Origin: Candidatus Levyibacteriota bacterium
GTDB taxonomy: Bacteria; Patescibacteriota; Microgenomatia; Levybacterales; UBA12049
Length of the DNA: 64,000 nucleotides
NCBI GenBank assembly: GCA_963722305.1
Contig: CAVRKE010000001.1
Span: forward strand, 437,549-501,548
Direction: 5' to 3'
Shown here: piece by piece, positions 38,393-64,000 of the stretch
Layout of the letters: each line of letters begins with the position of its first letter
Position numbering within the stretch: the stretch's first letter is position 1
Made by a program: the position numbers and the translations under genes
The notes under the pieces: generated by a model
Told to the model about the DNA's origin: nothing
Databases searched by the model: none
The model's input: only the letters and a program-made list of their open reading frames with translations

Positions 38393-39280
38393 ATTGGATA
38401 ATTTCTAGAGCCTATTATAGCAGGAATTGGTTTTGAAGACGACTTTGCCACCAAAAATACGTTCGGCTACGCTCAGTATTTTTGTGGTGAGCGGAGTCGA
38501 ATCCACCAAAAAACCACCCTTCGGCTTCGCTCAGGACCTCGCTTGCGCTCGACCCCGTGTGCCTTGAGATGGTTTAAAAATGAAAAGTAACTAGAGGGTG
38601 CTGAATAGCGCCCTCCAACCAAAAAGTGGTAGGAAACCCCTCCTCCGCTAAAGCTTCGGAAGGGCAAGTGAATAAGTGAGATTTACAAGAGTTATTCTCT
38701 CTTGGTGTTACGAGTTAATTGGTATTGAAAACTAAAAGTGTGAACCTTTAATCTTTTGCCAACTTCGCCGTTCATCCCCTATTCCTACTCTGTAAATTGG
38801 GACGCGCCCAATTTAATTTTAGAAAGGAGGTGATCCATCCCCACCTTCGGGTAGGGATACCTTGTTACGACTTAAGCCTTATCGCCGATTTTTATCTCTA
38901 TCGCAAAAAGCAATATTCGATAACTACCGACTTTACTGCCTTGACGGGCGGTGTGTACAAGACCCGAGAACGTATTCACCGCAGCATGCTGATCTGCGAT
39001 TACTACCGATTCCGACTTCATGAGGTCAGGTTGCAGACCTCAATCTGAACTGAGGCGAAATTTAAGGGATTGGCTTGCCGTTGCCGGCTTGCAACCCGTT
39101 GTTTTTCGCCATTGTAGTGTGTGTGTAGCCCAGGGTATAAGGGCCGTGCTGACTTGACGTCTTCCGCTCCTTCCTTCCCAATAAAATTGGGACCGTCTCC
39201 AATGAATATTCAACATTGGACGCGGGTTGCGCTCGTTTCCCCACTTAAGGGAACACCTCACGGCACGAGCTGACGACCAT

Positions 39281-40061: not shown

Positions 40062-40187
40062 AGCCATGCAGCACCTGTGCAATCATCCTTACGGATTTGC
40101 TAATCTTTCAAAAAGCATAAACGATTGCATGTCAAACCCTGGTGAGGTTCTTCGTTTTGTCTCGAATTGAACCACACGCTCCACCGG

Positions 40188-40247
<60 letters not shown>

Positions 40248-41024
40248 CCTGCTTAACGTGTTAACTTGCGCCTCATCCTCCGAGGGAGGAGAAAGCTAGC
40301 AGGCATTGTTTACGGCTAGGACTACACAGGTATCTAATCTGTTTCGCTACCCTAGCTTTCGTGCCTCAGCGTCAGGAATATTCCAGATGCTTGCCTTCGC
40401 CTTTGGTGTTCCAGTTAATATCAACGCATTTCACTGCTACACTAACTGTTCCAGCATCCCTAACAATCCTCAATCCCGATAGTTTCTTTCCCAGTTCCGA
40501 AGGTAAGCTTCGGTATTTAAGAAAAGACATATCGGGACGCCTACGCACACTTTACGCCCAATGAATCCGGATAACGCTTGCCTCCTACGTATTACCGAGA
40601 CTTCTGGCACGTAGTTAGTAGAGGCTTATTCTATAGTCCGTGAAGGGACTATCAAAAGGAGTTTACAACCCTAAGGCTGTCTTCCTCCACGCGGCGTCGC
40701 TGGGTCAGGCTTTCGCCCATTGCCCAATATTCCTAGTTGCTGCCATCCGTAGATGTACTGCCCGTGTCTCAGTGCAGTTGTGGCTGATCGACCTCTCAGT
40801 CCAGCTACCCGTCATCGCCTTGGTGGGCTTTTACCCCGCCAACAAGCTGATAGGACGCAGGCTCATCTCTTGGCGCAAAGTTAATTGCTTTACAATAAAT
40901 TGATTATGGACTATTACCCACTCTTTCGAGAGGCTATGGTCCACCTAGAGGTAGATTCCTACGCGTTACTCACCCGTCTGCCAGTTACTTGTCTTGCGAC
41001 AAATCCCTTTGACTTGCATGCTTA

Positions 41025-41067
<43 letters not shown>

Positions 41068-41312
41068 AAAAAAAATTGATGTTAGATTTTCTTTTAGGAA
41101 TTAATCTAACAAAAAATTCCTACCACTTTTTGGTTGAGAAACTTGTTTCGAAACCAACCCTCCAGCAATCGCTCCGTGAGCCGCAGTAGAAATCTACTAA
41201 GGCGAACGGTAAGATGCGGACGGGTTGATTAAAACAGCTTCTAATTACAAAAAGCTCCTTCTCATTCTGTGCTGTATGTGATAACGAATTTTTAAAGTGC
41301 GATTGGCTATTA

Positions 41313-49404: not shown

Positions 49405-51531
49405 TTATTCCTCCGAAGCGGTAGGTTGTGCGGAAGCTCCTGCTGTTTTTTCTTTTAATTTATCCTGACTTTTTCCCTCGACTGCGCTCGGGATTTCGCT
49501 TCGCTCAACTTTTGGATTCTTAATATCTTCTAACTTCCAGGCGGCGAAGGTACATTTTGGGTAATTAGAACAACCATAAAATCGGCGGCCTTTTTTAGTC
49601 TTTTTGAGTATAATTTTTGCACCATCTTTGGGGCAGATTAAGTTAGTTTCTACCACAAAAGGCTTGGTAAATTTGCAGGCCGGAAAGTTTTCGCAAGCCA
49701 GGAATTTCCCAAATCGACCGATTCTAATTATCAAATGTCCTTGGTCTTGCGGACAAATTTCGTCAGTCTTCTCCACCTCAATCTTAACCCGAGCCGCATC
49801 TTTAACGTTTTCCAAAGTTTGGGCAAACGGCGTATAAAATTCTTTAATTACCGGCACCCATTTTTTTTCGCCGCTAGCAATTTGGTCCAAACCGTCTTCC
49901 ATTGCGGCAGTAAACGGAATATCATCAACGGTTGAAAAATTGGCTACCAGAAAATCATTAACCGCAATTCCTACCGTTGTCGGTTGGAACCTTCCTTCAA
50001 CTCTTTCGATATATTGCCTGCCCTCAATCGTTGAAATAATCGTGGCGTAAGTTGAGGGCCGGCCAATTCCCTCTTCCTCCAAAGCGGCGATTAAAGACGC
50101 ATCGTTATACCTTGGCGGCGGTAGAGTTTCATGCTCTTTTTCTTCGATTTTTGAGGCTGATAAAACATCTGCAACTGCAAATTCAGGCAAGATGTTATCA
50201 TTTAAAGCCTGAACATTTACTTTGAGGAATCCGTCGAAAATCAGCACCGAACCGTTGGCTTTTAGTCTGTAAACTTTATTTTCGCTGTCAACCATTACCG
50301 TTGTCGACTCCACCACGGCATCGCTCATTTGCGACGCTACCGCCCTTCTCCAAATTAGCTCGTAAATTTTAGCGTAATCCCTGCCAATTTGAGTAGCCAC
50401 TTCTTCGGTTAAAACCTGCACTTTTGTTGGCCTAATTGCTTCGTGTGCTTCCTGCGCTAATTTTTGTTTGGCCTTGTAAAATCTTGAGCTTTCGGGAATA
50501 TATTTGCCGCCGTAAGTTTTGGCAACATAATTTCTAATTGACGTAACCGCCGATTGAGCCATCGAAACCGAATCGGTTCTATGGTAAGTAATGTAACCTT
50601 CTTCGTACAGTTTTTGCGCCAAACTCATGGTGCGCTTGCCGGAAAAACCGAATCTTCGCGAAGCATCTTGTTGTAAGGTTGAGGTCGTAAACGGCGCCAA
50701 AGGTGCTCGTTTGCTTTCTTTCTTGAGGACATCGGCCACAATCAGTTTTTGAGTAGACAGATCCGCAACAATCTGCTTGGCTTTTTCTAAATTGTCAATT
50801 GTGGTTTTGCTAAAAGTATATTCGCCGTCATAAAGTTTGAGCTTTTCGGAAATTTCAATTTTACTCTGATTGATTTCGATTAGCTCAAACTCCGTTCCTT
50901 CAGATTTGAGATTTGGGATTTGGGATTTGGGATTTACCATCAGCGTACTGATAGTGTAGTATTTTTCCTTTTTAAACTTTTCGATTTCCCTTTCCCTTTC
51001 GACAATCAATCTTAAAGCCACCGACTGGACTCGGCCGGCAGACAGCCCACGTCTGACTTTTTGCCACAAAATTGGCGACAGTTTGTAACCAACCAATCTA
51101 TCCAAAACTCTGCGGGCGGTTTGGGCGTCAACCAAATTTACATCCACTTCCCGCGGGGTTTTTAGTGCTTCGTCAATTGCTTCTTTAGTGATTTCGTGGA
51201 AAACAATTCTTTGGAACTTTTTGCTCTTGTCTGCTTTTTGCAAAACGTCCTGAACATGCGCCGCAATCGCTTCTCCTTCTCTGTCAGGGTCGGTGGCCAG
51301 GATGATATTTTCGGCACTCTTTCCGGCGGCTTTTAATTCGGCTAAAACTTTTTTCTTATCCTCCATCATGACATATTCCGGCGTAAAATCATGCTCGACA
51401 TCAATCCCCAGGGTTGACTTTGGCAAATCCATAATATGCCCCATCGAAGCTTTAATTTGGTAATCCTCGCCTAAGAAACGCGAAATAGTTTTGGCTTTTG
51501 TTGGAGATTCGACTATTACCAAGTTTTTCAT
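49405..51531 (-). CDS. topA: DNA topoisomerase I
   Basis: TOPRIM N-terminus MKNLVIVESPTKAKTI, the GYITYHRTDS active-site Tyr region, and C-terminal C4 zinc ribbons (CPKDG...C..C, C...C). Confidence 0.9.
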   Translation of the reverse strand: MKNLVIVESPTKAKTISRFLGEDYQIKASMGHIMDLPKSTLGIDVEHDFTPEYVMMEDKKKVLAELKAAGKSAENIILATDPDREGEAIAAHVQDVLQKADKSKKFQRIVFHEITKEAIDEALKTPREVDVNLVDAQTARRVLDRLVGYKLSPILWQKVRRGLSAGRVQSVALRLIVEREREIEKFKKEKYYTISTLMVNPKSQIPNLKSEGTEFELIEINQSKIEISEKLKLYDGEYTFSKTTIDNLEKAKQIVADLSTQKLIVADVLKKESKRAPLAPFTTSTLQQDASRRFGFSGKRTMSLAQKLYEEGYITYHRTDSVSMAQSAVTSIRNYVAKTYGGKYIPESSRFYKAKQKLAQEAHEAIRPTKVQVLTEEVATQIGRDYAKIYELIWRRAVASQMSDAVVESTTVMVDSENKVYRLKANGSVLIFDGFLKVNVQALNDNILPEFAVADVLSASKIEEKEHETLPPPRYNDASLIAALEEEGIGRPSTYATIISTIEGRQYIERVEGRFQPTTVGIAVNDFLVANFSTVDDIPFTAAMEDGLDQIASGEKKWVPVIKEFYTPFAQTLENVKDAARVKIEVEKTDEICPQDQGHLIIRIGRFGKFLACENFPACKFTKPFVVETNLICPKDGAKIILKKTKKGRRFYGCSNYPKCTFAAWKLEDIKNPKVERSEIPSAVEGKSQDKLKEKTAGASAQPTASEE

Positions 51532-51664: not shown

Positions 51665-52873
51665 TTAGCGAATGGATTGAAAAAGGCCGTCGGAGTTTTT
51701 GATGATTCCTTTTATTTCCATCATCGAAAGCAAACTGCCAATTTGAGATGGATCGAGATTTGAGCGCCTGACGATTTCGTCAAAACCGAGTCCTTCGTTT
51801 TCCAATAGTTGCATTATTCTGAGTTCATTTTTTGATAGATTCTGAAACTTCGGGTTTGTTTTTTCCATTCTTAATTCATAATTCTTAATTCCTAATTCTT
51901 TTTGAATGTCCTGCGCGGACGTCACCAACTTTGCTCCCTTCTCTATTAATTTAAGTGGTGCGACTGATAATGAAGAAGTCACCGGCCCCGGCACCGCAAA
52001 CACCGGACGGTGAATTTTGAACGCCTCATCGGCCGTAATTAATGCTCCGCTGTCAATTGCTCCTTCGGTTACCAAAACTCCGTCCGAGATGCCGGCCACA
52101 ATCCTATTTCGGGCCGGAAACGAACCCATTGAAGGCGGCTCTCCCGGCTTATATTCCGAAACCACTGCCCCACCGCAATCCAAAATTTCTTCGTAAAGTT
52201 TTTGGTTTTCTCGGGGGTATGCCATATCTACACCGTTTCCTAAAACAGCAATCGTTTTCCCGTGTGCGTTGATGGCTGACTGATGTGCCACACCATCTAC
52301 GCCATAAGCCATTCCCGAAACAATCGTTAAACCGGCTCTGGCTAAATCTCCTGCGAACATTTCGGTAATTTCTCTACCGTAGTTGGTAATACGCCTTGTC
52401 CCGACGATTGCAATGAAAAGAGAATTTTTATTGGCGCGGGAAGATACAAAATTTTCGCTGCTTTCATTCGAACCTTCAGACTTCAGGTTTAACTTTTTAG
52501 AACCTTGAGCTGAAAGCGAGAAAATTTTCGTATCGACCTCAGCGCCACGAAAAATATTAATGTTCCCTTTTGCGTATAAGCCAATTGGCGGATTGGGAAT
52601 TTGTTTAAGAAGCGGCGGGTATTCTGCGTCGAGAAGGCAGATGAATTTGATTTTTTGTTTTTGAAGCCTTAACTGATATTCTGCAAAATTAAACTGTTCT
52701 CGAAACTGGGTAAATTTTGCTGTAAGAGCCGGTTTTAGAATATCGATTAGTTTTGACTCGTCTGCCTTCCAGGCATTTCCCAATGAACCGAAATTCTTAA
52801 GCAACAAATCCAGTTTTTTCGGCCCAATCCCCGGCGCTTGAGAAAATCCTAAATAATATTCTTGTTCGCTCAT
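51665..52873 (-). CDS. dprA: DNA-processing protein DprA (Smf) with an in-frame MITE-like insertion
   Basis: The true N-terminus is MSEQEYYLGFSQAPGIGPKK; the ORF track starts 29 codons earlier. Rossmann-like core GTRRITNYGREITEMFAGDLARAGLTIVSGMAYGVDGVAHQ. The insertion ...SEGSNESSENFVSSRANKNS is encoded by repeat copy 52434..52545. Confidence 0.85.
   Translation of the reverse strand: MSEQEYYLGFSQAPGIGPKKLDLLLKNFGSLGNAWKADESKLIDILKPALTAKFTQFREQFNFAEYQLRLQKQKIKFICLLDAEYPPLLKQIPNPPIGLYAKGNINIFRGAEVDTKIFSLSAQGSKKLNLKSEGSNESSENFVSSRANKNSLFIAIVGTRRITNYGREITEMFAGDLARAGLTIVSGMAYGVDGVAHQSAINAHGKTIAVLGNGVDMAYPRENQKLYEEILDCGGAVVSEYKPGEPPSMGSFPARNRIVAGISDGVLVTEGAIDSGALITADEAFKIHRPVFAVPGPVTSSLSVAPLKLIEKGAKLVTSAQDIQKELGIKNYELRMEKTNPKFQNLSKNELRIMQLLENEGLGFDEIVRRSNLDPSQIGSLLSMMEIKGIIKNSDGLFQSIR
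52434..52545. repeat. MITE-like dispersed repeat, copy F; in-frame inside dprA
   Basis: GCGCGGGAAGATACAAAATTTTCG...GAAAATTTTCGTATCGACCTCAGCGC, with both termini intact. Confidence 0.7.
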
Positions 52874-52940
52874 TAGACTTATGATATACGATTTAAGATT
52901 TATGAACAAATATAGTCTGGTAGGTTCTAAAACGAAGTGC

Positions 52941-54004
52941 AACACTTGAGGTAAAATCAATTACCGAAAGGAGGTGTTGCGCTATGTATAATCATTTAAC
53001 TCTTGTAGAGCGGGAAGAGCTTTATGCGCTTAAGCATGCAGGACTAAGTCTGGGAGATATTGCAGATAAATTAGGACGAAACAAAGGCACTCTGTCTCGT
53101 GAACTCAAAAGAAACAGAACATATACCAAGGGATTGGAGAAAACTTCAGCCGTATATATTCCCTGCCGTGCACAACAAAAAGCTGATAAGAGAGCAGCTA
53201 TTCAACGCTCTCAAGCATCCTGGAAAGGACCGGAGGTCTACTCTTATGTTAAAAAGAAACTAATAGAGAAACAGTGGTCTCCTGAAACAATTGCCGGAAG
53301 ATTGTCAAAAGATCATCCCGATCTTTCAATTGTCCATGAAACTATTTATCAGGCAATCTACAAACCACAGAACAAGCAATTTAAGCTCTGGCAATATCTA
53401 ACAGTAAAACGCAAGAAAAGAATGAAAAAGCTGGGAAGAAGGGTTAATAGAGATAGCCGTATTCCTGAAGCTATTTCGATTGATAGTAGACCCAAATCGA
53501 TTGACACAAGATTACAACTTGGCCATTGGGAGACAGATAATGTGATAGGCCGCCAAACTGACAAGACTGCCCTGTCAGTAACGGTTGAAAGAAAACTAAG
53601 GCTTACTGTTATGTCAAAGCTAGCTGCTAAAACAGCAGATGAAAAAACTAAGAAACTGTTTGCTAGAATGAGTCGTTTTCCTGACAAAATCAGAAAAACT
53701 CTGACTGCTGACAATGGAGCTGAAAATACCAAACATAAACAAATTACGGAGAGCTTAGACATGTCTGTATATTTCTGTCATGCATATCACTCCTGGGAAA
53801 AAGGAACGGTTGAAAATATGAATGGAAGAATCAGGCGTTTTATTCCTAAAGGCATAAGCATGGATCTAATTACCGAAAGAGACGTTGCTTTAATTGAATG
53901 GGAACTGAATAATACGCCCAGAAAATGTTTGGATTGGAAAACACCACTTGAAGTTTTAGGAGAAATCATGCAGAATACAAAAACCTCAAATCGTTGCACT
54001 TCGA
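52941..54004 (+). mobile_element. IS30-family insertion sequence
   Basis: Terminal inverted repeats CGAAGTGCAACACTTGAGGT (52943..52962) and the reverse complement of AACCTCAAATCGTTGCACTTCG (53977..54002) bracket the transposase gene. Confidence 0.6.
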
Positions 54005-54009
54005 GCTAG
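52984..54009 (+). CDS. IS30-family transposase
   Basis: N-terminal HTH (LTLVEREELYALKHAGLSLGDIADKLGRNKGTLSRELKRNR) and a DDE core with HWETDNVIG. Confidence 0.85.
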   Translation: MYNHLTLVEREELYALKHAGLSLGDIADKLGRNKGTLSRELKRNRTYTKGLEKTSAVYIPCRAQQKADKRAAIQRSQASWKGPEVYSYVKKKLIEKQWSPETIAGRLSKDHPDLSIVHETIYQAIYKPQNKQFKLWQYLTVKRKKRMKKLGRRVNRDSRIPEAISIDSRPKSIDTRLQLGHWETDNVIGRQTDKTALSVTVERKLRLTVMSKLAAKTADEKTKKLFARMSRFPDKIRKTLTADNGAENTKHKQITESLDMSVYFCHAYHSWEKGTVENMNGRIRRFIPKGISMDLITERDVALIEWELNNTPRKCLDWKTPLEVLGEIMQNTKTSNRCTSS

Positions 54010-54022
54010 AATGTACCTCTGC

Positions 54023-54051
54023 TTGACAGCTAAAATTGTTAACCCTATAAT
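54023..54051 (+). promoter_or_regulatory. Consensus sigma70-type promoter TTGACA-N17-TATAAT driving the 54058 small gene
   Basis: TTGACA at 54023..54028, a 17-nt spacer, TATAAT at 54046..54051. The start codon is 7 nt downstream. Confidence 0.55.
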
Positions 54052-54057
54052 ATTGGA

Positions 54058-54480
54058 ATGGAAGAAGGCCAACCTTATCCAAGTGCTTATGATCGGGGCA
54101 AAACACATAGTATACAAGCAAGGACAATTGAACATAACAATATGGCAGTTGGCAGTCTCCCCAACATCATCCGCTATGTTTCAAGAAGAGATGAAATCAG
54201 GGTTCTCCCACCAAAAATTTTGTCAGAATTTATAAGTGTAGGCGGAGCCCCTCTTTTTGAAGTAACTTTAAAACACGGATATTTTCAAAGAGAAACGTCT
54301 CTATGCTTAACTTCTACGGAAATTGTAAGATTGGTAGGTTGGGTTGACCAAGGCCGTAGTTGGCGAACAAACAAGGGCTTTTTAAGAGTACAACGAGTTT
54401 CCGATGCTATTGTAGAAAGAATCAGGCGTACTCCTGGTATTGTAAATTTCGATGAACATGCCCCTCTCGGCAATCCTTAA
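54058..54480 (+). CDS. Small hypothetical protein (140 aa); paralog of 55772..56212
   Basis: Shares GG(A/L)PLF(E/N)VTL...E(I/L)...(R/K)L..WV..G..WR(T/S)...FL(R/K) with the 55772 protein, and a conserved downstream CTTTACTTCATTGACA box. Confidence 0.45.
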   Translation: MEEGQPYPSAYDRGKTHSIQARTIEHNNMAVGSLPNIIRYVSRRDEIRVLPPKILSEFISVGGAPLFEVTLKHGYFQRETSLCLTSTEIVRLVGWVDQGRSWRTNKGFLRVQRVSDAIVERIRRTPGIVNFDEHAPLGNP

Positions 54481-54671
54481 CCGTAGTGCAGAAAACCAAC
54501 ATCGTCATCAATCACTATGCATAAACCTTTACTTCATTGACAGAACCCCCCTTCACCACCGCAAACCCCAAATAATAATCCCGTTCTTCCATTAAATTAA
54601 TAATATATGATTTGCAATTCATGAACAATGCAACTGTATAAGTTACGAAACATATTCGACATTTCGTAACT

Positions 54672-55736
54672 ATGGATCATTACGCCAGAGCATACCCAAT
54701 CTTTAGTAGAATACGAGGACTTGAGGAGGTGAAAAAAGTGGTAGCAAGTCTTAAAAGGTTCTCTAAAGATGAAATAGCTAAAGAAAGACTTAGAATCATT
54801 GAGTTCTACGATCTACATGGCGAGAAAACAACACGTGAAGCATTTAAGGTTGGCAGAGATACTATTTGGATATGGAAGAAACGGTTAAAAGAGAGTCACA
54901 ATAGTATTTCCTCATTAATCCCAACACTAACAACGCCTAAAACCAGAAGAACTATGATAACTAACCCAAAGGTAATCTTGTATGTTAAATCCTTGCGGGA
55001 AAAACACCCAAGACTTGGAAAAGAGAAGATTAAACCTCTTTTAGATAAGTATTGTCTTAAAGAAGGACTTCCGGCTATAGAAGTATCAACCATCGGTAAG
55101 GTAATCAAGAGAAATAACTTCTTTTTTCAACAGTCAGGCAAGATTTACCATAATCCCGGTAGCGGCTTTGCTAAAAGAAAGAGAACAAGGCGAATAAGAG
55201 TAAGATATGCTCCTAAACCTACCAAGATAGGATATGTTGAAATGGACACTGTTTTAAGGTTTGTGGATGGTATTCGATACTACTTCTACCAGGCAGTTGA
55301 TGTTAAAGGTAAATTTGCCTTCTCCTTAATGTACAAACACTTAAATAGCCAGAATACGGTAGATTTCTTCAAGAAACTTGAGGTAGTGTATCCTTACAGG
55401 ATTAAGACTGTCCAAACAGATAATGGTCTTGAATTCCTGGGAGACTTTGAGGATTATCTTAAAAAGCATCAAATCTCCCAAGTATTTATCTATCCCCGCT
55501 GCTGTAGAATCAACGGGGTTGTGGAAAGATTCAATAGAACCATTCAGGAAGAGTTTATTGACAATAATCTGGAATACATCCATAACCCCGTACTTTTTAC
55601 TGGAAAACTGATTGATTATCTGATATTCTACAATACAGAAAGAGTGCATAAGTCTTTGGGGTTAATTTCTCCAATGGACCACCTCATTCTAAAAGAAGGA
55701 TTGTCGAATAACTCCGTAACCTATACAGCAACTTGA
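54672..55736 (+). CDS. IS481-family (rve integrase core) transposase
   Basis: N-terminal HTH plus DDE core VQTDNGLEFLG...ERFNRTIQEEF...YNTERVHKSLGLISP. Element termini were not confidently identified. Confidence 0.75.
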   Translation: MDHYARAYPIFSRIRGLEEVKKVVASLKRFSKDEIAKERLRIIEFYDLHGEKTTREAFKVGRDTIWIWKKRLKESHNSISSLIPTLTTPKTRRTMITNPKVILYVKSLREKHPRLGKEKIKPLLDKYCLKEGLPAIEVSTIGKVIKRNNFFFQQSGKIYHNPGSGFAKRKRTRRIRVRYAPKPTKIGYVEMDTVLRFVDGIRYYFYQAVDVKGKFAFSLMYKHLNSQNTVDFFKKLEVVYPYRIKTVQTDNGLEFLGDFEDYLKKHQISQVFIYPRCCRINGVVERFNRTIQEEFIDNNLEYIHNPVLFTGKLIDYLIFYNTERVHKSLGLISPMDHLILKEGLSNNSVTYTAT

Positions 55737-55761
55737 CAATTACATTCATCTCTGATATTAT
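55733..55761 (+). promoter_or_regulatory. Near-consensus promoter TTGACA-N17-TATTAT driving the second small gene
   Basis: The TTG of the -35 box was picked as the ORF start in the six-frame track. The more plausible start is the ATG at 55772. Confidence 0.5.
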
Positions 55762-55771
55762 AGGCCGCAAT

Positions 55772-56212
55772 ATGACAGACGGCCCATTTAAACCCTCTCC
55801 ACAAGATGTCGCCAACGCGGCAATATCTATTGATTTACAAAGAAGAATGGATACACACGATCAAATGGCAGGCCAATATCTTGGTGATACCATTTACACT
55901 CTCCAAGAAGGAATTATCGCTGTTGGGAAACCAAGCTTATTACCAACGAATTTATCATTTGGCGGCTTACCGTTATTCAATGTGACTTTAACCAGAACTA
56001 GAGAGAATCCTCAAGGCGGAGCACCCTTAATCGACTCTATTGAATTAACAGCTCCTAAAGTTTTACGACTGGCAGACTGGGTTGCTTATGGACTTGGTTG
56101 GCGAAGCGATGAACGATTTTTAAAAACCCTAACTGTCACCATGGGAATCTTAGCATCGGTGCGTCAAGCCGTTGGAGGAGATTCATCTGATTCAGCAGCC
56201 CCGCAGAATTAA
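55772..56212 (+). CDS. Small hypothetical protein (146 aa); paralog of 54058..54480
   Basis: See 54058..54480. Start reassigned to the internal Met (MTDGPFKP...). Confidence 0.45.
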   Translation: MTDGPFKPSPQDVANAAISIDLQRRMDTHDQMAGQYLGDTIYTLQEGIIAVGKPSLLPTNLSFGGLPLFNVTLTRTRENPQGGAPLIDSIELTAPKVLRLADWVAYGLGWRSDERFLKTLTVTMGILASVRQAVGGDSSDSAAPQN

Positions 56213-56381
56213 CAATCCTTCCTCGAGCTCATCGTTTTGTTCACAGGCTAGTTCATTCCCTATGTTCTATGGCTAAATTTTCTCCATGGAATTTACCCCC
56301 AATCCCGTCTTTACTTCATTGACAACAATCCCCCAAAAATGAAATACTAAGATTAACAAAAGCTCTGCCTTTTGATCCATT

Positions 56382-58064
56382 ATGCTGCTCAATGATGATC
56401 AATTAAAAAAATTGCTCTTGGAACATCGCGTTGTCGATGAAGCAAAACTGGCCGTAATCGAAAATTATGCCCGGAACACCAACTCCACCCTCTCTGACGC
56501 TTTAGTCGAAAATAACGTTATTGCCGATGAAGACCTAGGCTTAATGATTGCCAACTATCTACGGCTCCCATTTGTTAATTTAGCCAAAATCCAAATCCCG
56601 GAAGACGCTTTTCATATTGTTCCGGAAAGAATTGCCAGACGCCAAAAAGTAGTGGCTTATGCCAAAGACGGAAACGGCGTCAAACTGGCTATGGCAGACC
56701 CGCATAACATCCTGGTTCAGGAAATGATTGCCAAAAAAATCGGCCTATCCGTGACCGCTACGATGGCCACCGAAAGGGACATCTACGGGGTGATCAGAAT
56801 TTACCGCCGCGATTTGCAAAAAACACTTGACCGACTGATTAAGGAAAGTTTTTTAATTACCGGCAGCCAAGACAGCGCGCCGGTCGGAAAAATTGTGGAC
56901 CTAATTATAGATTATGCCTACCAAGATAAAGCCTCTGATGTTCATATCGAACCCGAAGAACAAGAATCGTTAATTAGGTTTAGAATTGACGGAATTTTAC
57001 ACGATTTTGCCACTGTCCCTAAGAATTTGCATGAGCAGATAATCACCAGAATTAAGGTCCTCTCAAGGCTTCGAACCGATGAGCATTTGGCGCCGCAGGA
57101 CGGAAAAATGCAGATGAAGCTGGAGGAAGAAAATCTTGACATCCGTGTTTCCCTGGTGCCGATTGTCGAAGGAGAAAAGGCGGTCTTAAGGCTTTTGGCT
57201 TCAAAATTCAGGCAGTTTTCGCTAATGGACCTTGGCATGTCGGAAAAAGATTTACAAAAAATGATTAAGGCTTACGGTAAGTCTTTCGGCATGATTTTAT
57301 CCACCGGGCCAACCGGCTCCGGAAAGACTACTTCAATTTATGCCATTTTGAAGATTTTGAACACCCGGGAGAAAAATATCACTACCATTGAAGACCCGGT
57401 CGAATACAAAATTAAAGGCGTTAACCAAATCCAAACCAATACCAAAGCCGATTTGACTTTTGCCTCCGGTTTAAGGTCGATTTTAAGACAGGACCCCAAT
57501 ATTATCTTTGTCGGAGAAATCAGAGATAACGAAACTGCCAATATCGCCGTTAACGCTGCCTTAACCGGCCATTTGGTCGTCTCGACCCTGCATACCAATG
57601 ACGCCGCCACTGCCCTACCAAGACTGACGGATATGAAAGTCGAACCGTTTTTGGTGGCTTCTACCGTCAATATAATAGTAGCCCAAAGGTTGGTCCGTAA
57701 GATTTGTGATAACTGCAAAACGCCGGTTAAAATCCCCTACCGCGATTTAGCCGCACATTTATCTCCGGCGACAATCAGCGCGCATTTTGGCGAGGAAGCC
57801 AGAGAACTTCAAGTTTACCAGGGACAAGGCTGTAAAGTCTGCCACATGTCAGGCTTTCAGGGACGAGTCGGTGTATTCGAAGTATTGGAAGTCAGCGAAA
57901 AAATCCGCAAACTGATTGTCGAAAAAAACGATTCGGACGTTATCTTAAAAAAAGCCATCGAAGAAGGCATGACCACGATGCTTGACGATGGACTGGATAA
58001 AGTTGCCAAAGGCGTCACCACTCTTAGTGAAGTCTTAAGAGTGACTAAAACCGAAACAGCATGA
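56382..58064 (+). CDS. pilB: Type IV pilus assembly ATPase PilB (GspE family)
   Basis: GspII_E N-domain, Walker A GPTGSGKTT, Asp and His boxes, and the tetracysteine CDNC...CKVC motif. Confidence 0.9.
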   Translation: MLLNDDQLKKLLLEHRVVDEAKLAVIENYARNTNSTLSDALVENNVIADEDLGLMIANYLRLPFVNLAKIQIPEDAFHIVPERIARRQKVVAYAKDGNGVKLAMADPHNILVQEMIAKKIGLSVTATMATERDIYGVIRIYRRDLQKTLDRLIKESFLITGSQDSAPVGKIVDLIIDYAYQDKASDVHIEPEEQESLIRFRIDGILHDFATVPKNLHEQIITRIKVLSRLRTDEHLAPQDGKMQMKLEEENLDIRVSLVPIVEGEKAVLRLLASKFRQFSLMDLGMSEKDLQKMIKAYGKSFGMILSTGPTGSGKTTSIYAILKILNTREKNITTIEDPVEYKIKGVNQIQTNTKADLTFASGLRSILRQDPNIIFVGEIRDNETANIAVNAALTGHLVVSTLHTNDAATALPRLTDMKVEPFLVASTVNIIVAQRLVRKICDNCKTPVKIPYRDLAAHLSPATISAHFGEEARELQVYQGQGCKVCHMSGFQGRVGVFEVLEVSEKIRKLIVEKNDSDVILKKAIEEGMTTMLDDGLDKVAKGVTTLSEVLRVTKTETA

Positions 58065-59119
58065 AAACCGAAAATATTAGTCTTTCTACCAATGACAAAC
58101 TGGCGATAATCAGCAATTTGGCCACCATGCTTAAGGCCGGAATTCCAATTTTAGAAGCGGTCCAATCGCTGCAAGAAGATTCAAAAGGCAACCAGAAGAA
58201 GGTCCTCGATACCTTAGCCGAAGATTTAATCCAGGGGAAAGGGGTTAATTTTACCTTTGCCCGTTTTCCCAGAGTTTTTGACCAAGTAACGGTCAATGTT
58301 ATTAAAGCCTCCGAGAACGCCGGTACGCTCGATACCACCTTAAATGATTTAAAAGCCAGCATTAAAAGAGACATTGAGTTTAACGACAAAATAAGGGAAG
58401 CCATGGTCTACCCGGTTTTAATTTTTATCGTTTTTATCGGCATTTCTTTAATGATTTTGACTTTCGTCATCCCGAAAATCGCGGTTGTTTTTAAAAACTT
58501 AAACGTAAACATGCCGTTTGTCACTAAAGTAATGATTTTTATGTCAAACCTAATCTTGCAGCAAACGATTCCGGTCATCATTGCCCTGGTGGCGATTATT
58601 TCCGGTTTGGTCTTTTTCTACAAAAAACAAAAAAAGAATATTTTTAACCTAATTTCAAAACTGCCGTATATTTCCGACTTAACCAAAAAAATTGATGTTA
58701 CCCGGTTTGCCAGAACTCTTTACCTTTTATTAAGCTCCGGCATTCCCATCACCTCCGCTTTACAACTCAGCGAAGAGGTAGTTCTGCGAAAAGACGTCAT
58801 TAAAGCGATTAAGCATTTGTATGAAGTTGTCCTTTCCGGTAAGAAAATTTCCGGCGGCTTAAAAGACTACAGAAATATCTTTCCGACAATTTTAATTAAA
58901 ATCACCGAAGCCGGAGAAAAAACCGGCACTTTGGATAAATCGATGCAGGAAGCCTCCGAATACATGGATTACGAAGTTGAGGGCTCACTCAAAACCGTTG
59001 TCACCTTAATTGAACCTGTAATGTTAATTCTCGTCGGTATTGCTGTCGGCGGAATGATCATGTCGATTATTTCTCCAATTTACGGCATGGTGGGACAACT
59101 CGGAGGCGCAGGTGGATAA
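58061..59119 (+). CDS. pilC: Type IV pilus platform protein PilC (GspF family)
   Basis: Two GspF repeats with the characteristic AGIPIL/SGIPIT motifs, and 3-4 TM helices. Confidence 0.85.
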   Translation: MKTENISLSTNDKLAIISNLATMLKAGIPILEAVQSLQEDSKGNQKKVLDTLAEDLIQGKGVNFTFARFPRVFDQVTVNVIKASENAGTLDTTLNDLKASIKRDIEFNDKIREAMVYPVLIFIVFIGISLMILTFVIPKIAVVFKNLNVNMPFVTKVMIFMSNLILQQTIPVIIALVAIISGLVFFYKKQKKNIFNLISKLPYISDLTKKIDVTRFARTLYLLLSSGIPITSALQLSEEVVLRKDVIKAIKHLYEVVLSGKKISGGLKDYRNIFPTILIKITEAGEKTGTLDKSMQEASEYMDYEVEGSLKTVVTLIEPVMLILVGIAVGGMIMSIISPIYGMVGQLGGAGG

Positions 59120-59195
59120 AATGCAATCTCTAGACCAAAAAGGGCTTATCCGGCATTATTGTAAATTCAAACAGTTGCTACTAAACAGGAAGCTG

Positions 59196-59672
59196 ATGAA
59201 TAATGCTGGGTTCACTATTCTGGAAGTAGTTTTGGCAATGGCGGTACTGGCAATTCTGATGGGGATAGCCGCCATGAACTTATTGGGATTGGCCAACCGA
59301 ACCTACCAAAATACTACTGCCCAAACTTTATATGCCGATTTAAAGTCACAGCAAGTCAAAGCGATGAACGGCGACACTCAAGGCTCGGGAACAACCGGAG
59401 CTTACGGTGTTTATTTTCAAGCAAATCAATATATCCTTTTTCAGGGAAACACTTATTTATCCTCTAACCCGACAAACTTTACGGTAAAAATTCCCGATGA
59501 TGTCACCTTTACCAACATTACTTTTCCTAACTCGCAAATAATTTTTGCTTCCGGATCCGGGGCGTTTGCCAATTTTGCTACCAACCACAATTCAGTAACC
59601 ATTTCCGCCATTAACGGCACTACTCAAAAAACTGTGACTTTGAACCGTTTCGGAGTAGTAACGTCGAACTGA
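59196..59672 (+). CDS. Prepilin-type N-terminal cleavage/methylation-domain pilin
   Basis: Class III signal MNNAG|FTILEVVLAMAVLAILMGIA. Start moved to the internal Met preceded by AGGAAG. Confidence 0.7.
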   Translation: MNNAGFTILEVVLAMAVLAILMGIAAMNLLGLANRTYQNTTAQTLYADLKSQQVKAMNGDTQGSGTTGAYGVYFQANQYILFQGNTYLSSNPTNFTVKIPDDVTFTNITFPNSQIIFASGSGAFANFATNHNSVTISAINGTTQKTVTLNRFGVVTSN

Positions 59673-59726
59673 GGCTCGAGCGAGCAGAGCGAAGCGAGAT
59701 CCCGAGCGTAGCCGAGGGAGAAATAC

Positions 59727-62723
59727 TTGAATAAAATGAAAGCAAAACTAAAACTAAACTTAAAAATCTTAAAACTGCACAGTAATTTAGGACAATCTTT
59801 AATTGAGCTTTTAATGGTCATCGGCCTGGCTTCGGTCATTCTGCCGACAGTATTTATGGCAGTAATGTCTGCGCAGGAAGGAAGAGTTCAACAAAGAAGC
59901 CGCATGCAGGCACTATCTTTACTGCGCGAGGCTGAAGACGCCACCAGGTCCTACCGTGACAACGACTGGAAGACTTTCGCAGTTGACGGTACATATCATC
60001 CGACTGCTTCCGGTAATGCCTGGATATTAGCCCCAAACGCGGAAGTAATTAACGGTTTTACCAGACAAGTGGTAATTACCGATGCTTACAGAGACGCCAA
60101 CGGAAATGCTTCTTCTAGCGGAACGCTTGACAATTCAACCAAACTGGTAACAATCACGGTTTCATGGAGCACTATATTTCCTTCTTCTGTCCAATCGCAA
60201 ATGTATTTAACCCGCCATGACAATTTGGCTTATACGCAAACCACTGTGGCTGATTTTAACGCAGGAGTTTTGTTTCAATCGCAGACGACGAGAATCAACA
60301 ATGATGATGGTGATGTAATATTAGGCAATAACAATAAAGCCAAGTGGTGTTCACCGGCTTTTTCCTCGGCCACCATCAACCTGCCCGACGGGCCGCCGGT
60401 GGCGGTGGCCGCCACTGCCAGCGCCGTTTCAAATGATATTCCCAACGATGTTTTTACCGCTACCGCACCTTATGCCACCAGTTCGGTAAAACTGGCCTAT
60501 TTGAATGTCAGCGCCGACACCGATCCGCCAATTGCCACACTTGAGGGAACTTTTACGCTGGATTCCACTAAGTATAGCAGCCCGTCATATTTTCCGACAA
60601 ACATCGGCGGTCTTGATAATAATTTTCGCACTAACGACGTCAAATACTATAAATCTTCCGGGGGGAAACTTTATGCGCTTCTGGCAACCGATAATCCAAA
60701 CAAAGAAGTAGTCGTTGTCCAAATCAATGACGGAACTTCACCAACTTTTCAGGATCCTGTCAACAAAATTTACAAATACTGGACTTACTTCAATACAAAA
60801 ATCTATGCCCCGCCTCCACCAACTCTAGTCAATGCGGATTTTGAAACCAATAATATTTCGCCCTACACAACGGTAATCAATAGCGGTTCGGGATCTACGG
60901 TAAGCTCACCCGTACACTCCGGCACTTATGCCGCTAAGGTCACGACTACCAAAAACAGCGTCAGCGGCGTTGGTGGAGGCGGCGGTTGTTCGGGAGGCAA
61001 AAGAGTTTCGGTCAATGCTAATACCACCTACACCTGGTCCGGTTATGTCAATGTGCCAACTAGCGGCAATTCAAAATTTAAAGATGCCAGAATTAGAGTA
61101 GTTTACTATTCTGCTTGCACCGGAGGCTCAACGGTCAGCACCAACGACAGTAATACCATTACCACTACCGGTTCCGCTTGGACACAAGTAACCGGCGCTG
61201 CCAATTCCGGTACCGCCACTTATGCCGAAATTCAGTTATTGCTGGAATCATCATCCAACGGAACGACTTCTACCGCTTATTTTGACGATATTGCGATGAG
61301 CGCTGCCACCAGCTTTAACGACCAGTCCCCTTTTGGTTATGGAGCATCGGCAATTACCATTCTTGGCAACACCGGCTACGTTGATTCGGGAGGATATTTG
61401 TATGCTTTCGATTTAAGTAATATTGACGCTAAATCACCCACTGTTGAGTTGGACCAGGTTGGCTGCCGGATTTTACTTGACGGTTATGATTGTCAACCGG
61501 GAAACGGAACCGATAAGAAGTACAGCTCCGGAGAAACCGGAACCAACTGGAGCACTACAACCTCCCCTGCTCATAATAATTGCTCTGACGGTGGAAATAT
61601 TGAGATCAACGCAGACCATCAACTTTCCGGCGTACAAACCAGCGACGGCAAAAAATATATTTATGTCGCGGTTGGTGCCGGAACCAATCCTGAATTAGAT
61701 ATTGCTGAAGTCACCACTCCTCCAGGCAATTTGAGCGCCACCACTTGCGGAAGAGGCAACGATACCGGCTGGAAAGTCACTGGCACCTTAGACTTTGACA
61801 ACTATTCTGATCCTCAGGGAAGATTTTCGACTGAAGAAGCAGCCAATTCGGTTTACGCTAAACAGGATGCAACCGGCTCAAGGGCTTATATGTCATCGAA
61901 TGGCGGAATTATTTCCGGCAACGGCATCCCTGACAGCGACCAATTCTATATTATAGATACAACCAATAAATCAGCGCCACAATTTTTGTATACTTGGCCT
62001 TCAACACAATTGAACCCTCCCGCTCCAACTCCGCCGCATTACGCCAACACGGCGGGAACTGGTTATTACAACGGTAACTCAACCAATATTGAACTTTATC
62101 CCAGGCGCGCCCTAACAGTTTTGAATGGCGGACGCGCGGTTTTAATCGGACAGGACGGTATTCCCAATGACGGCATTGAACCGGACGAATATCAAGTGCT
62201 AAACCTGGATAATGAACAGTCCCCCATATTTTGCAACGGCTTGAATTTTCTGCCGGGATTCAACGATATGACTTCCGTCACCGAGGCTAATAACGACAGT
62301 TATGTTTATTTGGTCGCCAACACGATGGACCACCAACTGAAAATTATCCAGGGTGGTCCGGACAGCGGAATATATATCAATGCCGGACAAATTACCTCAA
62401 GTAACTTTGATGCCGGAAAAGCAACAGCCTTTAATGGTTTTAATGCCACAGTTGTGCAAAATCCGCCGACCACCAGTGTGCAATTTCAAGTGGCAGTGGG
62501 CGGAGACGACAATGCCAACTGCGCGACCGTCAATTATCAATACGTCGGCCCCGATGGAACCGCTAACACCCAATTTGCCACCACCAGTGCTGCAATTCCC
62601 CTTTCCGGTCCTTCGGGCTACCAAAATCCGGGCAGGTGCTTTAGCTATAAAGCGTTTTTAACCACCACCGACAACAATCAAACGCCAATTTTAGATGACT
62701 TTACGGTCAATTATTCACCATGA
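59727..62723 (+). CDS. Giant (998 aa) pilin-like protein with a prepilin N-terminus and a CBM4/9-like carbohydrate-binding module
   Basis: N-terminal ...LGQSLIELLMVIGLASVILPTVFMAV is a pseudopilin helix. Residues ~365-530 (NADFETNNISPYT...SPVHSGTYAAKVT...YTWSGYV...YFDDIAMS) resemble CBM_4_9. Confidence 0.6.
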   Translation: MNKMKAKLKLNLKILKLHSNLGQSLIELLMVIGLASVILPTVFMAVMSAQEGRVQQRSRMQALSLLREAEDATRSYRDNDWKTFAVDGTYHPTASGNAWILAPNAEVINGFTRQVVITDAYRDANGNASSSGTLDNSTKLVTITVSWSTIFPSSVQSQMYLTRHDNLAYTQTTVADFNAGVLFQSQTTRINNDDGDVILGNNNKAKWCSPAFSSATINLPDGPPVAVAATASAVSNDIPNDVFTATAPYATSSVKLAYLNVSADTDPPIATLEGTFTLDSTKYSSPSYFPTNIGGLDNNFRTNDVKYYKSSGGKLYALLATDNPNKEVVVVQINDGTSPTFQDPVNKIYKYWTYFNTKIYAPPPPTLVNADFETNNISPYTTVINSGSGSTVSSPVHSGTYAAKVTTTKNSVSGVGGGGGCSGGKRVSVNANTTYTWSGYVNVPTSGNSKFKDARIRVVYYSACTGGSTVSTNDSNTITTTGSAWTQVTGAANSGTATYAEIQLLLESSSNGTTSTAYFDDIAMSAATSFNDQSPFGYGASAITILGNTGYVDSGGYLYAFDLSNIDAKSPTVELDQVGCRILLDGYDCQPGNGTDKKYSSGETGTNWSTTTSPAHNNCSDGGNIEINADHQLSGVQTSDGKKYIYVAVGAGTNPELDIAEVTTPPGNLSATTCGRGNDTGWKVTGTLDFDNYSDPQGRFSTEEAANSVYAKQDATGSRAYMSSNGGIISGNGIPDSDQFYIIDTTNKSAPQFLYTWPSTQLNPPAPTPPHYANTAGTGYYNGNSTNIELYPRRALTVLNGGRAVLIGQDGIPNDGIEPDEYQVLNLDNEQSPIFCNGLNFLPGFNDMTSVTEANNDSYVYLVANTMDHQLKIIQGGPDSGIYINAGQITSSNFDAGKATAFNGFNATVVQNPPTTSVQFQVAVGGDDNANCATVNYQYVGPDGTANTQFATTSAAIPLSGPSGYQNPGRCFSYKAFLTTTDNNQTPILDDFTVNYSP

Positions 62724-63238
62724 AAATAATTCATAATTCAAAATTCATAATTCATAATTCCCGTAAGGGCTTTACGCTGATTGAACTCGCCATTTATATG
62801 GGGATTTTAGCCATTTTGCTTTTGGTTCTTTCAAGTTTTTTCAATAGCGCCATGGATACCTTGCTTTCGTCCCAGGCAACTTCCCCCACCGAACAGGACT
62901 CTAAATTTATTTTGAACCGGCTTTTTTATGATATTACCAACGCGGACAGCCTGACAATGCCCGTCAACCCCGGCGATTCGGGCCAAACCATGCAGCTTGT
63001 CCACAACGGCATCACCTATACCTATACCCTAACCGGCAATAATTTAACTTTGGCGGACAATGTCGGTACCGATGTTTTAAACAGCCCGCAGACAACAATT
63101 TCCAATTTGAGTTTTAAACGCATCGGCTATGCGGGAGAAATTCCAACCGTGCAAATCCAGTTTACAATCACCAGCGTCACCACAGCCAAATCGGGCAAGG
63201 ATTCGCAAAATTTTGAAACAACCGTTAGTTTAAGATGA
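62720..63238 (+). CDS. Prepilin-type pilin/pseudopilin
   Basis: Leader MKIIHNSKFIIHNSRKG|FTLIELAIYMGILAILLLV. Confidence 0.65.
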   Translation: MKIIHNSKFIIHNSRKGFTLIELAIYMGILAILLLVLSSFFNSAMDTLLSSQATSPTEQDSKFILNRLFYDITNADSLTMPVNPGDSGQTMQLVHNGITYTYTLTGNNLTLADNVGTDVLNSPQTTISNLSFKRIGYAGEIPTVQIQFTITSVTTAKSGKDSQNFETTVSLR

Positions 63239-63642
63239 TATCAAAAATTAAAAATTTAAATTTAAAAATTAATAATTCAGGCGGGCAGGCCCTAATCAGT
63301 TTGATATTTTTCTCTTTGGCCGCGATGGCGATTGCCACCGCCGCCATTATCGCCACACTTTCATCGACTATTGCCTCGAGTAAGTTACAAAGCGGCACTT
63401 TGACTTTTTCCGAAGCCGAATCCGGCGCCGAAAATGCCTATCTTCGGCTCCTGCGAAACCCTAATTATAAAGGCGAAACCATGACTATCAACGGCGCCAC
63501 CGTTGTTGCCACTGTTTCCGGCTCAACCAACATTACTATCAACTCTCAAGCTAGTTCCGGAACATTTATCAGAACCGTGCAAGTAATATTGCAATACACT
63601 AATGGTAAATATGTTATACAATCATGGAAGGAGGTATTTTAA
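63235..63642 (+). CDS. Minor pilin-like protein (prepilin-like N-terminus without Glu5)
   Basis: ...NNSGGQALISLIFFSLAAMAIATAAIIA is a hydrophobic pilin-like helix. Confidence 0.45.
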   Translation: MISKIKNLNLKINNSGGQALISLIFFSLAAMAIATAAIIATLSSTIASSKLQSGTLTFSEAESGAENAYLRLLRNPNYKGETMTINGATVVATVSGSTNITINSQASSGTFIRTVQVILQYTNGKYVIQSWKEVF

Positions 63643-63644
63643 GA

Positions 63645-64000
63645 GTGGCAGCTAAAAAATTACCAACCGGCATACTTTTTATCGACGCGAATCGGATTGA
63701 TATTTATAGCGCAACCAAAAATGCGGTTTTTTCCTTGGATATTCCCCAAGAAATTATTAAATATTGCGAAGTCCTGGACAGAGAAAAACTGCATCTTTTA
63801 GTAAAATCTTTTATTGAAACCAACAAACTTCCCCCTTCTTCCTTGATTGTAATTTTGGCAAAACCGATTTTATTCCAAAAAGATTTTGTGAAAGCTCAGG
63901 AAGGTGAAGCCGAAGACCAGCAGAAACTGCAAGCGCAGGAATTTGTCGATAACGTACCGTTTGAATCTGTCGGCAGCAAAATCGTGCCATTGGAAAAAGG
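63645..64000 (+). CDS. Hypothetical protein (partial; GTG start, runs off the window end); probably part of the pilus operon
   Basis: The strong SD GGAAGGAGG lies 9 nt upstream of the GTG. The open frame continues to the window end. Not present in the ORF track. Confidence 0.4.
   Translation, partial: MAAKKLPTGILFIDANRIDIYSATKNAVFSLDIPQEIIKYCEVLDREKLHLLVKSFIETNKLPPSSLIVILAKPILFQKDFVKAQEGEAEDQQKLQAQEFVDNVPFESVGSKIVPLEK

Follow-up and report, generated by a model that had tools for sequence, protein, structure and literature searches.

A type IV pilus operon in a Patescibacteria genome encoding a giant modular pilin with a carbohydrate-binding-module-like insert, a probable pilus-tip adhesin

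We analysed a stretch of 64,000 nucleotides from a Candidatus Levyibacteriota bacterium (assembly GCA_963722305.1, contig CAVRKE010000001.1, positions 437,549 to 501,548 of the forward strand), here called the window, with a focus on a pilus operon at its right-hand end and on the giant pilin that this operon encodes. The operon runs on the + strand from 56382 to beyond 64000 and consists of seven tightly coupled genes, encoding: PilB, PilC, a prepilin, a pilin of 998 amino acids (aa), a second prepilin, a 135-aa protein (p135) and a 228-aa membrane protein (p228). Adjoining genes share 4-8 nt or leave gaps of a few bases between them. The features are as follows (the slash marks the putative cleavage site of the prepilins):

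56319..56348, + strand: promoter-like site TTGACA-18-AATACT, TG-extended, 34 nt upstream of pilB (consensus scan)
56382..58064, + strand: pilB, pilus extension ATPase, 560 aa (Pfam T2SSE 1.8e-127, MshEN 1.7e-13)
58061..59119, + strand: pilC, platform protein, 352 aa, its start overlapping the pilB stop by 4 nt (Pfam T2SSF 5e-44, in two stretches; NCBIfam GspF 9.5e-67, PilC 1.5e-61)
59112..59672, + strand: minor prepilin 1, 186 aa as the longest open reading frame (ORF), NAG/FTILE (Pfam N_methyl 2.8e-6, TIGR02532 3e-5)
59727..62723, + strand: giant pilin, 998-aa ORF (sequence)
62720..63238, + strand: minor prepilin 2, 172 aa, RKG/FTLIE, overlapping the giant gene by 4 nt (Pfam N_methyl 2e-7)
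63235..63642, + strand: p135, 135-aa pilin-like protein, SGG/QALISL...AESGAENA, candidate PilX/GspK-type cap subunit
63646..64000, + strand: 5' part of the p228 gene, GTG start, with a GGAGG Shine-Dalgarno sequence 10 nt upstream (sequence, translation)

A preliminary description of the stretch had named a type IV pilus operon that encodes a giant pilin, and the gene identities and the pilin signature bear this out: pilB, pilC, the first prepilin gene, the 998-aa reading frame and the second prepilin gene were all found where it had placed them (Pfam T2SSE, T2SSF and N_methyl), as was the further gene with a strong Shine-Dalgarno sequence. PilB scored 537 bits against the NCBIfam model of the type IVa pilus (T4aP) PilB, 511 bits against GspE and 255 bits against ComGA, all below the equivalog cut-offs. 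Promoter-like sites are not enriched in the region (29 versus 21.6 ± 3.7 expected), and the site before pilB is singled out by its position only. A regular expression for the prepilin motif, run over all six frames of the window, gave just three matches, and these all lie inside the pilus operon, so that they do not represent a chance pattern. An identical copy of the operon is present on a public contig of 8.7 kb (L001), in which the last gene is complete (L001:7948-8634, 228 aa), with a convergent gene after it.

The conservation of the operon was surveyed in 80 related loci (at least 75 of them distinct loci from a collection with one genome per species). Homologues of pilB, pilC, the two prepilins, the giant pilin, p135 and p228 were each recovered in 62-76 of the 80 loci and mostly in one gene order, with prepilin 1 at the same position in 76, prepilin 2 in 72, p135 in 70 and p228 in 62. 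The Pfam-annotated gene calls on three of these loci (L002, L004 and L005) agree with the synteny.

The giant pilin is composed of four structural parts and one insert, the boundaries of which were taken from the sequence, from an alignment of 120 homologues (mean column identity 47%) and from structure prediction with AlphaFold2:

59727..59792, + strand: leader peptide, residues 1-22, with Gly-1 at its end (read from the sequence; G22 and E27 kept in at least 90% of the 120 homologues)
59793..60326, + strand: pilin module, residues 23-200, QSLIE... (AlphaFold2: helix 24-79, antiparallel sheet 88-171)
60339..60797, + strand: beta-propeller, first two blades, residues ~205-357 (AlphaFold2: four-strand units, predicted local distance difference test score, pLDDT, mostly 84-98)
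60798..61319, + strand: CBM_4_9-like jelly-roll insert, residues 358-531 (insert states in the family, CBM_4_9 matches in orthologues, AlphaFold2, Foldseek)
61320..62381, + strand: beta-propeller, remaining ~5 blades, residues 532-885 (AlphaFold2: pLDDT mostly 80-97)
62382..62723, + strand: C-terminal beta-sandwich, residues 886-998, and stop codon (AlphaFold2: strands 894-910, 916-925, 969-980 and 988-997)

At the N-terminus the sequence is ...HSNLG/QSLIELLMVIGLA, which places G at -1 and E at +5, and the segment after the site, ...HSNLG/QSLIELLMVIGLASVILP, forms a hydrophobic stretch. The full-length model, calculated from the 120-sequence alignment, has a mean pLDDT of 79 with 500 residues at 90 or more, and predicts an N-terminal helix of 56 residues that is followed by the strands of a small pilin sheet; the pLDDT is 83-95 over residues 51-160 and only 58-71 over residues 21-50, where the hydrophobic helix starts. 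The prepilin site, which had been named as a point on which the pilin assignment could fail, thus shows G-1, E+5, the hydrophobic stretch and the long predicted helix. At the family level, the Pfam domain N_methyl (PF07963) matches 20 of 40 relatives of the giant pilin (best E 4.5e-5) and ComGE matches 5 of them. The protein contains ten cysteines, of which eight are invariant scaffold residues and the other two are invariant among the inserts, and 38.6% of its residues are Gly, Ala, Ser or Thr, a composition that fits an exposed extracellular protein.

The scaffold distal to the pilin module is predicted to be a beta-propeller that carries a C-terminal sandwich. Four-strand units repeat from residue ~226 to ~885 in the AlphaFold2 secondary structure, which makes about seven blades, a count that is a reading of the DSSP string and not a measured property. 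Five propeller cysteines (580, 589, 619, 674 and 836) are invariant, as are many charged and aromatic propeller residues in the alignment of the 120 homologues, and the Pfam LVIVD propeller repeat was found in 11 of the 40 relatives. The C-terminal sandwich is modelled with a pLDDT of 83-97 and contains the invariant pair C932 and C971. Searched with Foldseek against the PDB, the full model returned generic propellers only (DDB1, sialidases and phage tail proteins) at very low TM-scores, and PDB sequence searches, whether run with the protein by itself or with the profile of 120 sequences, returned nothing meaningful.

The insert sits in the propeller loop that joins blades 2 and 3, and holds the segment NADFETNN...YFDDIAMS (residues ~368-527) that had been likened to carbohydrate-binding modules (CBMs) of families 4 and 9. 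This likeness of a segment of ~170 aa was supported along three lines: by Pfam matches in orthologous inserts, by transitive homology and by structure comparison. CBM_4_9 (PF02018) matches 8 of the 11 orthologous inserts (best E 1.8e-7), a precomputed PF02018 match exists in one full-length homologue, and the NCBIfam NTTRR-F1 domain falls on the insert (7.4e-5). A word-indexed homologue search with the insert alone gave no matches, probably owing to its composition; a profile of the 11 inserts, run against 1.84 billion cluster representatives, recovered 188 proteins at E ≤ 0.001. Among these, P0132 was matched by the insert profile at 7.9e-20 and itself matches CBM_4_9 at 51.2 bits, above the gathering score of 25.9 bits, which connects the insert to the family by transitive homology. 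The top profile matches were surface proteins with a Sec signal and with PT-rich linkers, Kelch propellers, SLH or dockerin domains, and CBM_4_9 was matched by nine of ten of these. The CBM-plus-propeller pairing therefore recurs outside the pilins. The CBM subfamily marked by the invariant SGVAGGGxCxGGxR loop also turns up among these profile matches (P0121-P0147), as an N-terminal module of Sec-secreted proteins with PT-rich linkers, Kelch propellers, SLH domains or dockerins.

The full-length AlphaFold run did not resolve the insert (pLDDT below 50), because most of the aligned sequences carry another insert or none; from an insert-only alignment an all-beta model was obtained (predicted TM-score, pTM, 0.74). 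Most of the top 50 Foldseek PDB matches to this model are CBMs (E 2e-6 to 1e-3, probability 1.0, TM 0.5-0.6), including: the hyaluronan-binding CBM70 (4d0q), CBM16 (2zew, 2zey, 2zez), CBM22 (4xup), CBM4 (1gui, 1gu3, 3p6b) and a porphyran-binding CBM (8xmz); the others include phage tailspikes, CBM-carrying glycosidases and MAM domains. The absence of a CBM fold had been given beforehand as the outcome that would speak against the module, and the matches to CBM70, CBM16, CBM22 and CBM4 structures are what was found instead. The inserts are framed by two invariant motifs of this fold family, N-x-x-F-E close to the beginning and Y-F-D-D towards the end, which may form a structural calcium site of the kind present in CBM4/22-type modules. 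Homology and predicted fold together support the insert as a CBM_4_9-type jelly roll, and on the same grounds it would presumably bind carbohydrate.

The family to which the giant pilin belongs is large (more than 310 clusters at 90% identity among the candidates scored). All relatives with a meaningful taxon label are Patescibacteria, the names being Woesebacteria, Levybacteria, Shapirobacteria, Roizmanbacteria, Microgenomates, Saccharimonadales and 'Patescibacteria group'; the genome records of many relatives carry placeholder 'Gammaproteobacteria' labels. Within the 120 homologues the propeller loop occurs in three states: without insert (44 proteins, with a loop of 9-13 residues), with the CBM (11 proteins) and with a different insert of ~180 aa at the same loop, here called type B (65 proteins, e.g. 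P0013, P0019 and L002:10001-12982). Type B is recognised by the motifs DKDKH, SWDGGTTW (Asp-box-like) and NFRVRV, belongs to no Pfam family, gave only a weak Asp-box-like match to sialidases and has no detectable kinship with the CBM insert (hhalign probability 0.6%). The nearest relatives of the window protein comprise both the CBM-bearing P0001 (83% identical) and the insert-less P0003, P0009 and P0012 (69-77%), and a neighbour-joining tree of the scaffold alone requires at least 20 changes of insert state versus 45 for shuffled labels; the tree is rough and does not tell repeated loss from lateral exchange. The distribution does show that the scaffold is constant and that the loop is a socket whose content is labile in evolution, and the three-state pattern, as seen in the sequences, suggests an exchange of ligand specificity on that scaffold. 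We would go further only tentatively: the loop could be a 'hot-swappable' socket in which Patescibacteria swap, gain and lose unrelated ligand-binding cassettes, and so set which host cell-wall glycan, and hence which host, is recognised, an idea that we put forward as a speculation with some chance of being right. If it were true, the socket would be the pilus-tip analogue of the swapping of receptor-binding proteins in phage.

The giant gene lies within a set of four consecutive pilin-set genes (59112-63642), the last of which lacks Glu5, a layout of the HIJK type that is kept in about 70 of the 80 loci. Two more prepilin or pseudopilin genes had been reported after the giant gene; the first (62720-63238) carries N_methyl, and the second (63235-63642), which encodes p135, has neither Glu5 nor a match to a pilin hidden Markov model (HMM). 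The N-terminus of p135 is pilin-like (G/QALIS), and no Pfam or NCBIfam model matches the protein. Its homologues begin with G/Q-A-L-I-T/S, carry T, S, L or M and in no case E at +5 (in the 40 listed), and frequently contain AE(S/T)GAE; a PilX_N match in one of them (E 0.22) is negligible as HMM support. The K subunit of HIJK tip complexes also lacks E5 (PMC9934059), and judged by this sequence pattern p135 is a candidate for the PilX/GspK-type cap subunit of such a complex. The models do not place the set in GspH/I/J/K or FimU/PilV/PilW/PilX, GspH matching prepilin 1 at 5.9e-4 with 19.9 bits against a cut-off of 80. In p228 a hydrophobic helix at ~205-225 is the predicted C-terminal membrane helix, which would leave the N-terminal part in the cytoplasm. 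The extracellular C-terminus of the p228 homologues (L002:13865-14701, L004:13530-14633) varies from absent (228 aa) to LytR_C (367 aa), the LytR_C domain occurring in 5 of 28 homologues. The searches placed p228 in no recognisable family and did not identify it as PilM, PilN or PilO (PilM_2 matches 1 of the 28 homologues at 0.0034, with no NCBIfam and no meaningful PDB profile match); the protein could represent a PilM/PilN-type alignment component in reduced form. The p228 homologue is followed in L002 and L004 by one more N_methyl pilin, of ~155 aa.

These observations lead us to a reading that we hold, as a whole, to be rather probable: the operon, in a Patescibacteria genome of the Microgenomates type, would encode the motor, the platform and the set of minor pilins for a type IVa-like pilus, and the 998-aa protein would be a modular minor pilin that acts, by analogy with the systems compared below, as a pilus-tip adhesin with glycan recognition by its CBM. 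A prepilin peptidase would cut the giant pilin after Gly22, and helix 24-79 with the small pilin sheet would let it join the tip complex, a priming complex on the PilC platform that would also comprise the two small minor pilins and p135 as the subunit without Glu5. PilB would then polymerise the major pilin beneath, so that the giant pilin ends at the pilus tip; the bulky propeller-CBM-sandwich part could not fit inside the filament's body, which argues for display at the tip. There the head formed by the propeller, the CBM and the C-terminal sandwich would bind a surface polymer as an adhesin, the CBM adding glycan recognition, probably of a host cell-wall polysaccharide or an environmental polymer, and we infer that the exchangeable cassettes have a role in specificity.

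Several points weigh against this reading. Residue +1 of the giant pilin is Gln, not Phe or Met, which is non-canonical, and this unusual residue is found in most members of the family. The window copy has no N_methyl match in Pfam and none to the IV_pilin_GFxxxE HMM, and the proposed check of its insert with the PF02018 HMM had a divided outcome: most of the orthologous inserts match, as described, and the window copy's insert stays without a match at any E up to 10. Both assignments therefore stand, for this copy, only at the level of the family and of the predicted fold. The insert model, at a pLDDT of 72, is only moderately confident, CBM-like jelly rolls can have ligands other than glycans (MAM domains and tailspikes are among the matches), and Foldseek found no specific structural relative of the propeller in the PDB (TM below 0.25). 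No prepilin peptidase was seen in the window (ORF translations of at least 150 aa in 1-49000, read by eye and not scanned with HMMs) or among the called genes of L002, L004 and L005, and by-eye translations and motif regular expressions brought up no PilT, PilM/N/O or obvious major pilin in the window. Finally, processing, tip location, adhesion and ligand are all transferred from Streptococcus sanguinis PilC, from PilX2 and PilX1 of the Saccharibacterium TM7x and from PilY1.

CBM_4_9 modules are typically attached to carbohydrate-active enzymes, and this usual company raises the thought that the giant pilin is a pilus-borne enzyme, with a catalytic propeller (of a glycoside hydrolase, lyase or sialidase-like kind) that the CBM targets, and a tip that cuts host or environmental polysaccharide instead of only binding it. 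The Foldseek matches to the full model do include GH181 and GH33-type sialidases (E about 5e-6), type B has its Asp-box-like SWDGGTTW with the weak sialidase match, and invariant charged and aromatic residues are numerous in the propeller. The TM-scores to sialidases are however only 0.12-0.16 on the query, and the matches to DDB1 and to phage tail propellers rank just as high; the scaffold contains no Asp-box, shows no catalytic signature and gave no glycoside-hydrolase match in Pfam or in PDB sequences (window protein, 40 relatives and family profile), 44 of the 120 homologues do without a CBM or other insert, and the closest relatives of the insert are on Kelch, SLH and dockerin surface proteins rather than on recognisable enzymes. 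We consider an enzyme unlikely. The protein might also not be a pilus subunit at all, and instead be a surface adhesin held by an uncleaved N-terminal membrane helix and merely co-transcribed with pilus genes, a thought invited by Gln at +1, by the missing N_methyl match of the window copy and by the lack of a PilD gene nearby, within the searches given above. A plain membrane anchor would not require G-1 and E+5, which at least 90% of the 120 homologues keep; N_methyl is matched by half of the relatives tested, the gene has a fixed position inside the four-gene pilin set, and the predicted long helix followed by a sheet is of the pilin type, which together leave this explanation with very little probability.

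Type IV pili mediate DNA uptake in many bacteria, and the stretch had been called a competence-type locus on account of dprA, which lies on the far side of two transposase genes:

49405-51531, - strand: topA, co-oriented with dprA
51665-52960, - strand: dprA (Pfam DNA_processg_A 2e-71, DprA_WH 1.6e-8)
52919-52943 and 53993-54017: imperfect 25-nt inverted repeats that flank transposase gene 1
52984-54009, + strand: transposase gene 1, of an IS30-like element at 52919-54017 (HTH_38 and rve)
54058-54480 (140 aa) and 55733-56212 (159 aa), + strand: paralogous small ORFs (32% identical, BLASTP E 1e-17)
54672-55736, + strand: transposase gene 2 (rve_3/rve)

In a competence pilus, Com-type DNA uptake would be linked to dprA, and the giant pilin would capture DNA or contact donor cells. 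To this one can count the distance of 3.4 kb between dprA and pilB, the weak ComGE matches in 5 of the 40 relatives, and DNA uptake by an essential pilus in Saccharibacteria, which is only hinted at (PMC11623550). Against it, dprA is divergent from the pilus operon and grouped with topA on the opposite strand, and only 3 of the 80 loci have a dprA homologue at most 10 kb from the operon; this adjacency is neither operonic nor conserved, so that 'competence locus' is not supported. PilB, moreover, scores far better as T4aP PilB (537 bits) than as ComGA (255 bits, cut-off 300), and T4P-2 mutants of TM7x have no competence defect (PMC11623550). A competence pilus is accordingly improbable; DNA uptake by the pilus is simply not indicated by the locus, and dprA as a part of the pilus system was rejected on the grounds of strand and of its rarity near the operon. 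Of the order given beforehand, dprA followed by a spacer disrupted by an insertion sequence (IS) and then by the pilus operon, dprA and the two transposase genes are present, and what does not hold is the common direction, dprA lying on the minus strand. As a lesson for annotation, dprA beside a pilus operon does not by itself signal a competence locus.

The IS30-like element was also considered as disrupting dprA, which was rejected: its left repeat overlaps only a doubtful N-terminal extension of the longest ORF, and the true dprA start is probably Met30, at about 52873. The two small ORFs of the spacer have no Pfam or NCBIfam match and no homologue near the operon in the 79 other loci. Each of them follows a transposase gene and is itself followed by a conserved 25-nt repeat that contains TTGACA (54527-54551 and 56309-56333); the -35 box of the promoter-like site that precedes pilB falls within the second repeat. 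The public contig L001 begins just upstream of the 159-aa ORF, consistent with an assembly break at a repeated IS.

The window further carries housekeeping genes. The 16S rRNA gene at 38823-41073 (- strand) is 2251 nt long compared with 1533 nt for the model, and the extra ~700 nt hold a 186-aa ORF (39395-39955, - strand) that contains a LAGLIDADG-like motif, LAYLAGRIDGDGHI; the arrangement resembles an intron or insertion bearing a homing endonuclease, and interrupted 16S genes are known from Candidate Phyla Radiation (CPR) bacteria. A cluster at 17085-27239 (+ strand) encodes secreted Cys-rich or PT-linker proteins with internal paralogy: the products of 20534-21910 and 22882-24129 resemble each other, those of 19775-20482 and 21907-22830 share the C-terminal ...TIQVVT(K/S)DGVLNL(N/S)FDQ(N/T)TLFQKY..., and those of 21907-22830 and 24156-27239 (1027 aa) share an N-terminal Cys-rich domain. 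The cluster may encode additional proteins of the cell surface or of host interaction.

How ultrasmall CPR/Patescibacteria find and attach to their hosts is largely unknown, and type IV pili and lectin-like minor pilins have so far been implicated only in oral Saccharibacteria; the giant-pilin family would extend the lectin-like pilin idea to environmental Microgenomates. One well-conserved scaffold with two unrelated cassettes and an empty state at a single site amounts to a natural experiment on host or substrate specificity, and residues 358-531 are a defined domain that can be expressed for glycan arrays.

When compared with known systems, the giant pilin is not categorically new. Modular pilins are an established class, with more than 1,200 members known in 264 architectures and many of the members from CPR (PMC8179133), and Saccharibacteria, also of the CPR, have been reported to possess lectin-like minor pilins (PMC11623550), so that the earlier statement that it could be placed in no known family was too strong: its place is among the modular type IV pilins, a class already described. 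Four things appear to be undescribed in the literature searched: the giant-pilin family itself, its union of a pilin module, a propeller, a nested CBM and a C-terminal sandwich in one chain, its strict position after pilB-pilC, and the three-state insertion socket.

The large propellers of PilY1/PilC in diderm T4aP resemble the arrangement proposed here, being located at the tip with a minor-pilin complex of the HIJK type and having N-terminal modules that vary from one family member to another (PMC8179133). PilY1 is a non-pilin that docks non-covalently on minor pilins, whereas in the giant pilin the propeller is fused to the pilin module. The Pfam PilY1 domain (PF05567 / IPR008707) was not among the matches of the window protein or of 40 relatives, and no PilY1 entry is present among the 50 Foldseek matches listed. 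With PilC and PilB of S. sanguinis the giant pilin shares the class III signal peptide and the grafting of a functional module on a small pilin module (PMC9934059, PMC8179133). S. sanguinis PilC is a lectin pilin, the glycan binding of which was shown experimentally and which is modelled at the tip (PMC9934059); models put both proteins in a tip complex together with further minor pilins, as we propose for the giant pilin. Their modules differ from those found here, since they are ConA-like and Ig (PilC) or vWA (PilB) and are appended C-terminally, with no propeller and no nested insertion; S. sanguinis is moreover a monoderm Firmicute, and no sequence similarity was found in the PDB sequence and profile searches.

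A close parallel, by published description, is TM7x (Nanosynbacter lyticus), in which PilX2 is a propeller pilin and PilX1 a jelly-roll pilin (Grossman et al., PMC11623550), in both cases an oversized minor pilin of a CPR pilus that combines a pilin module with an accessory domain. Deletion of pilX2 lowers host binding, and rhamnose inhibits binding (PMC11623550). Both TM7x proteins have been proposed to be glycan-binding tip adhesins, which is the proposal made here. The propeller is seven-bladed in PilX2 and has approximately seven blades in the giant pilin, and the content of Gly, Ala, Ser and Thr is similar (38.6% versus 36.5% in TM7x PilX1; PMC11623550). In the giant pilin, unlike in TM7x, propeller and CBM are combined in one chain, the CBM is inside a propeller loop and there is an extra C-terminal sandwich. 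The propeller repeats are of the LVIVD type in the giant-pilin family, as against RCC1 reported for PilX2; the giant gene follows pilB-pilC and the first prepilin gene, whereas pilX2 is in a separate pilin locus; and the family is centred on Microgenomates, unlike the saccharibacterial PilX1 and PilX2. The insert, lastly, is like CBM families 4, 9, 16 and 22 in its predicted jelly-roll fold and its N-x-x-F-E and Y-F-D-D motifs, and differs from them in that the protein which carries it is a pilin and not a glycoside hydrolase; its subfamily is set apart by the invariant SGV-GGG-x-C-x-GG-x-R loop and a conserved Cys pair, which it shares with the Kelch, SLH and dockerin proteins.

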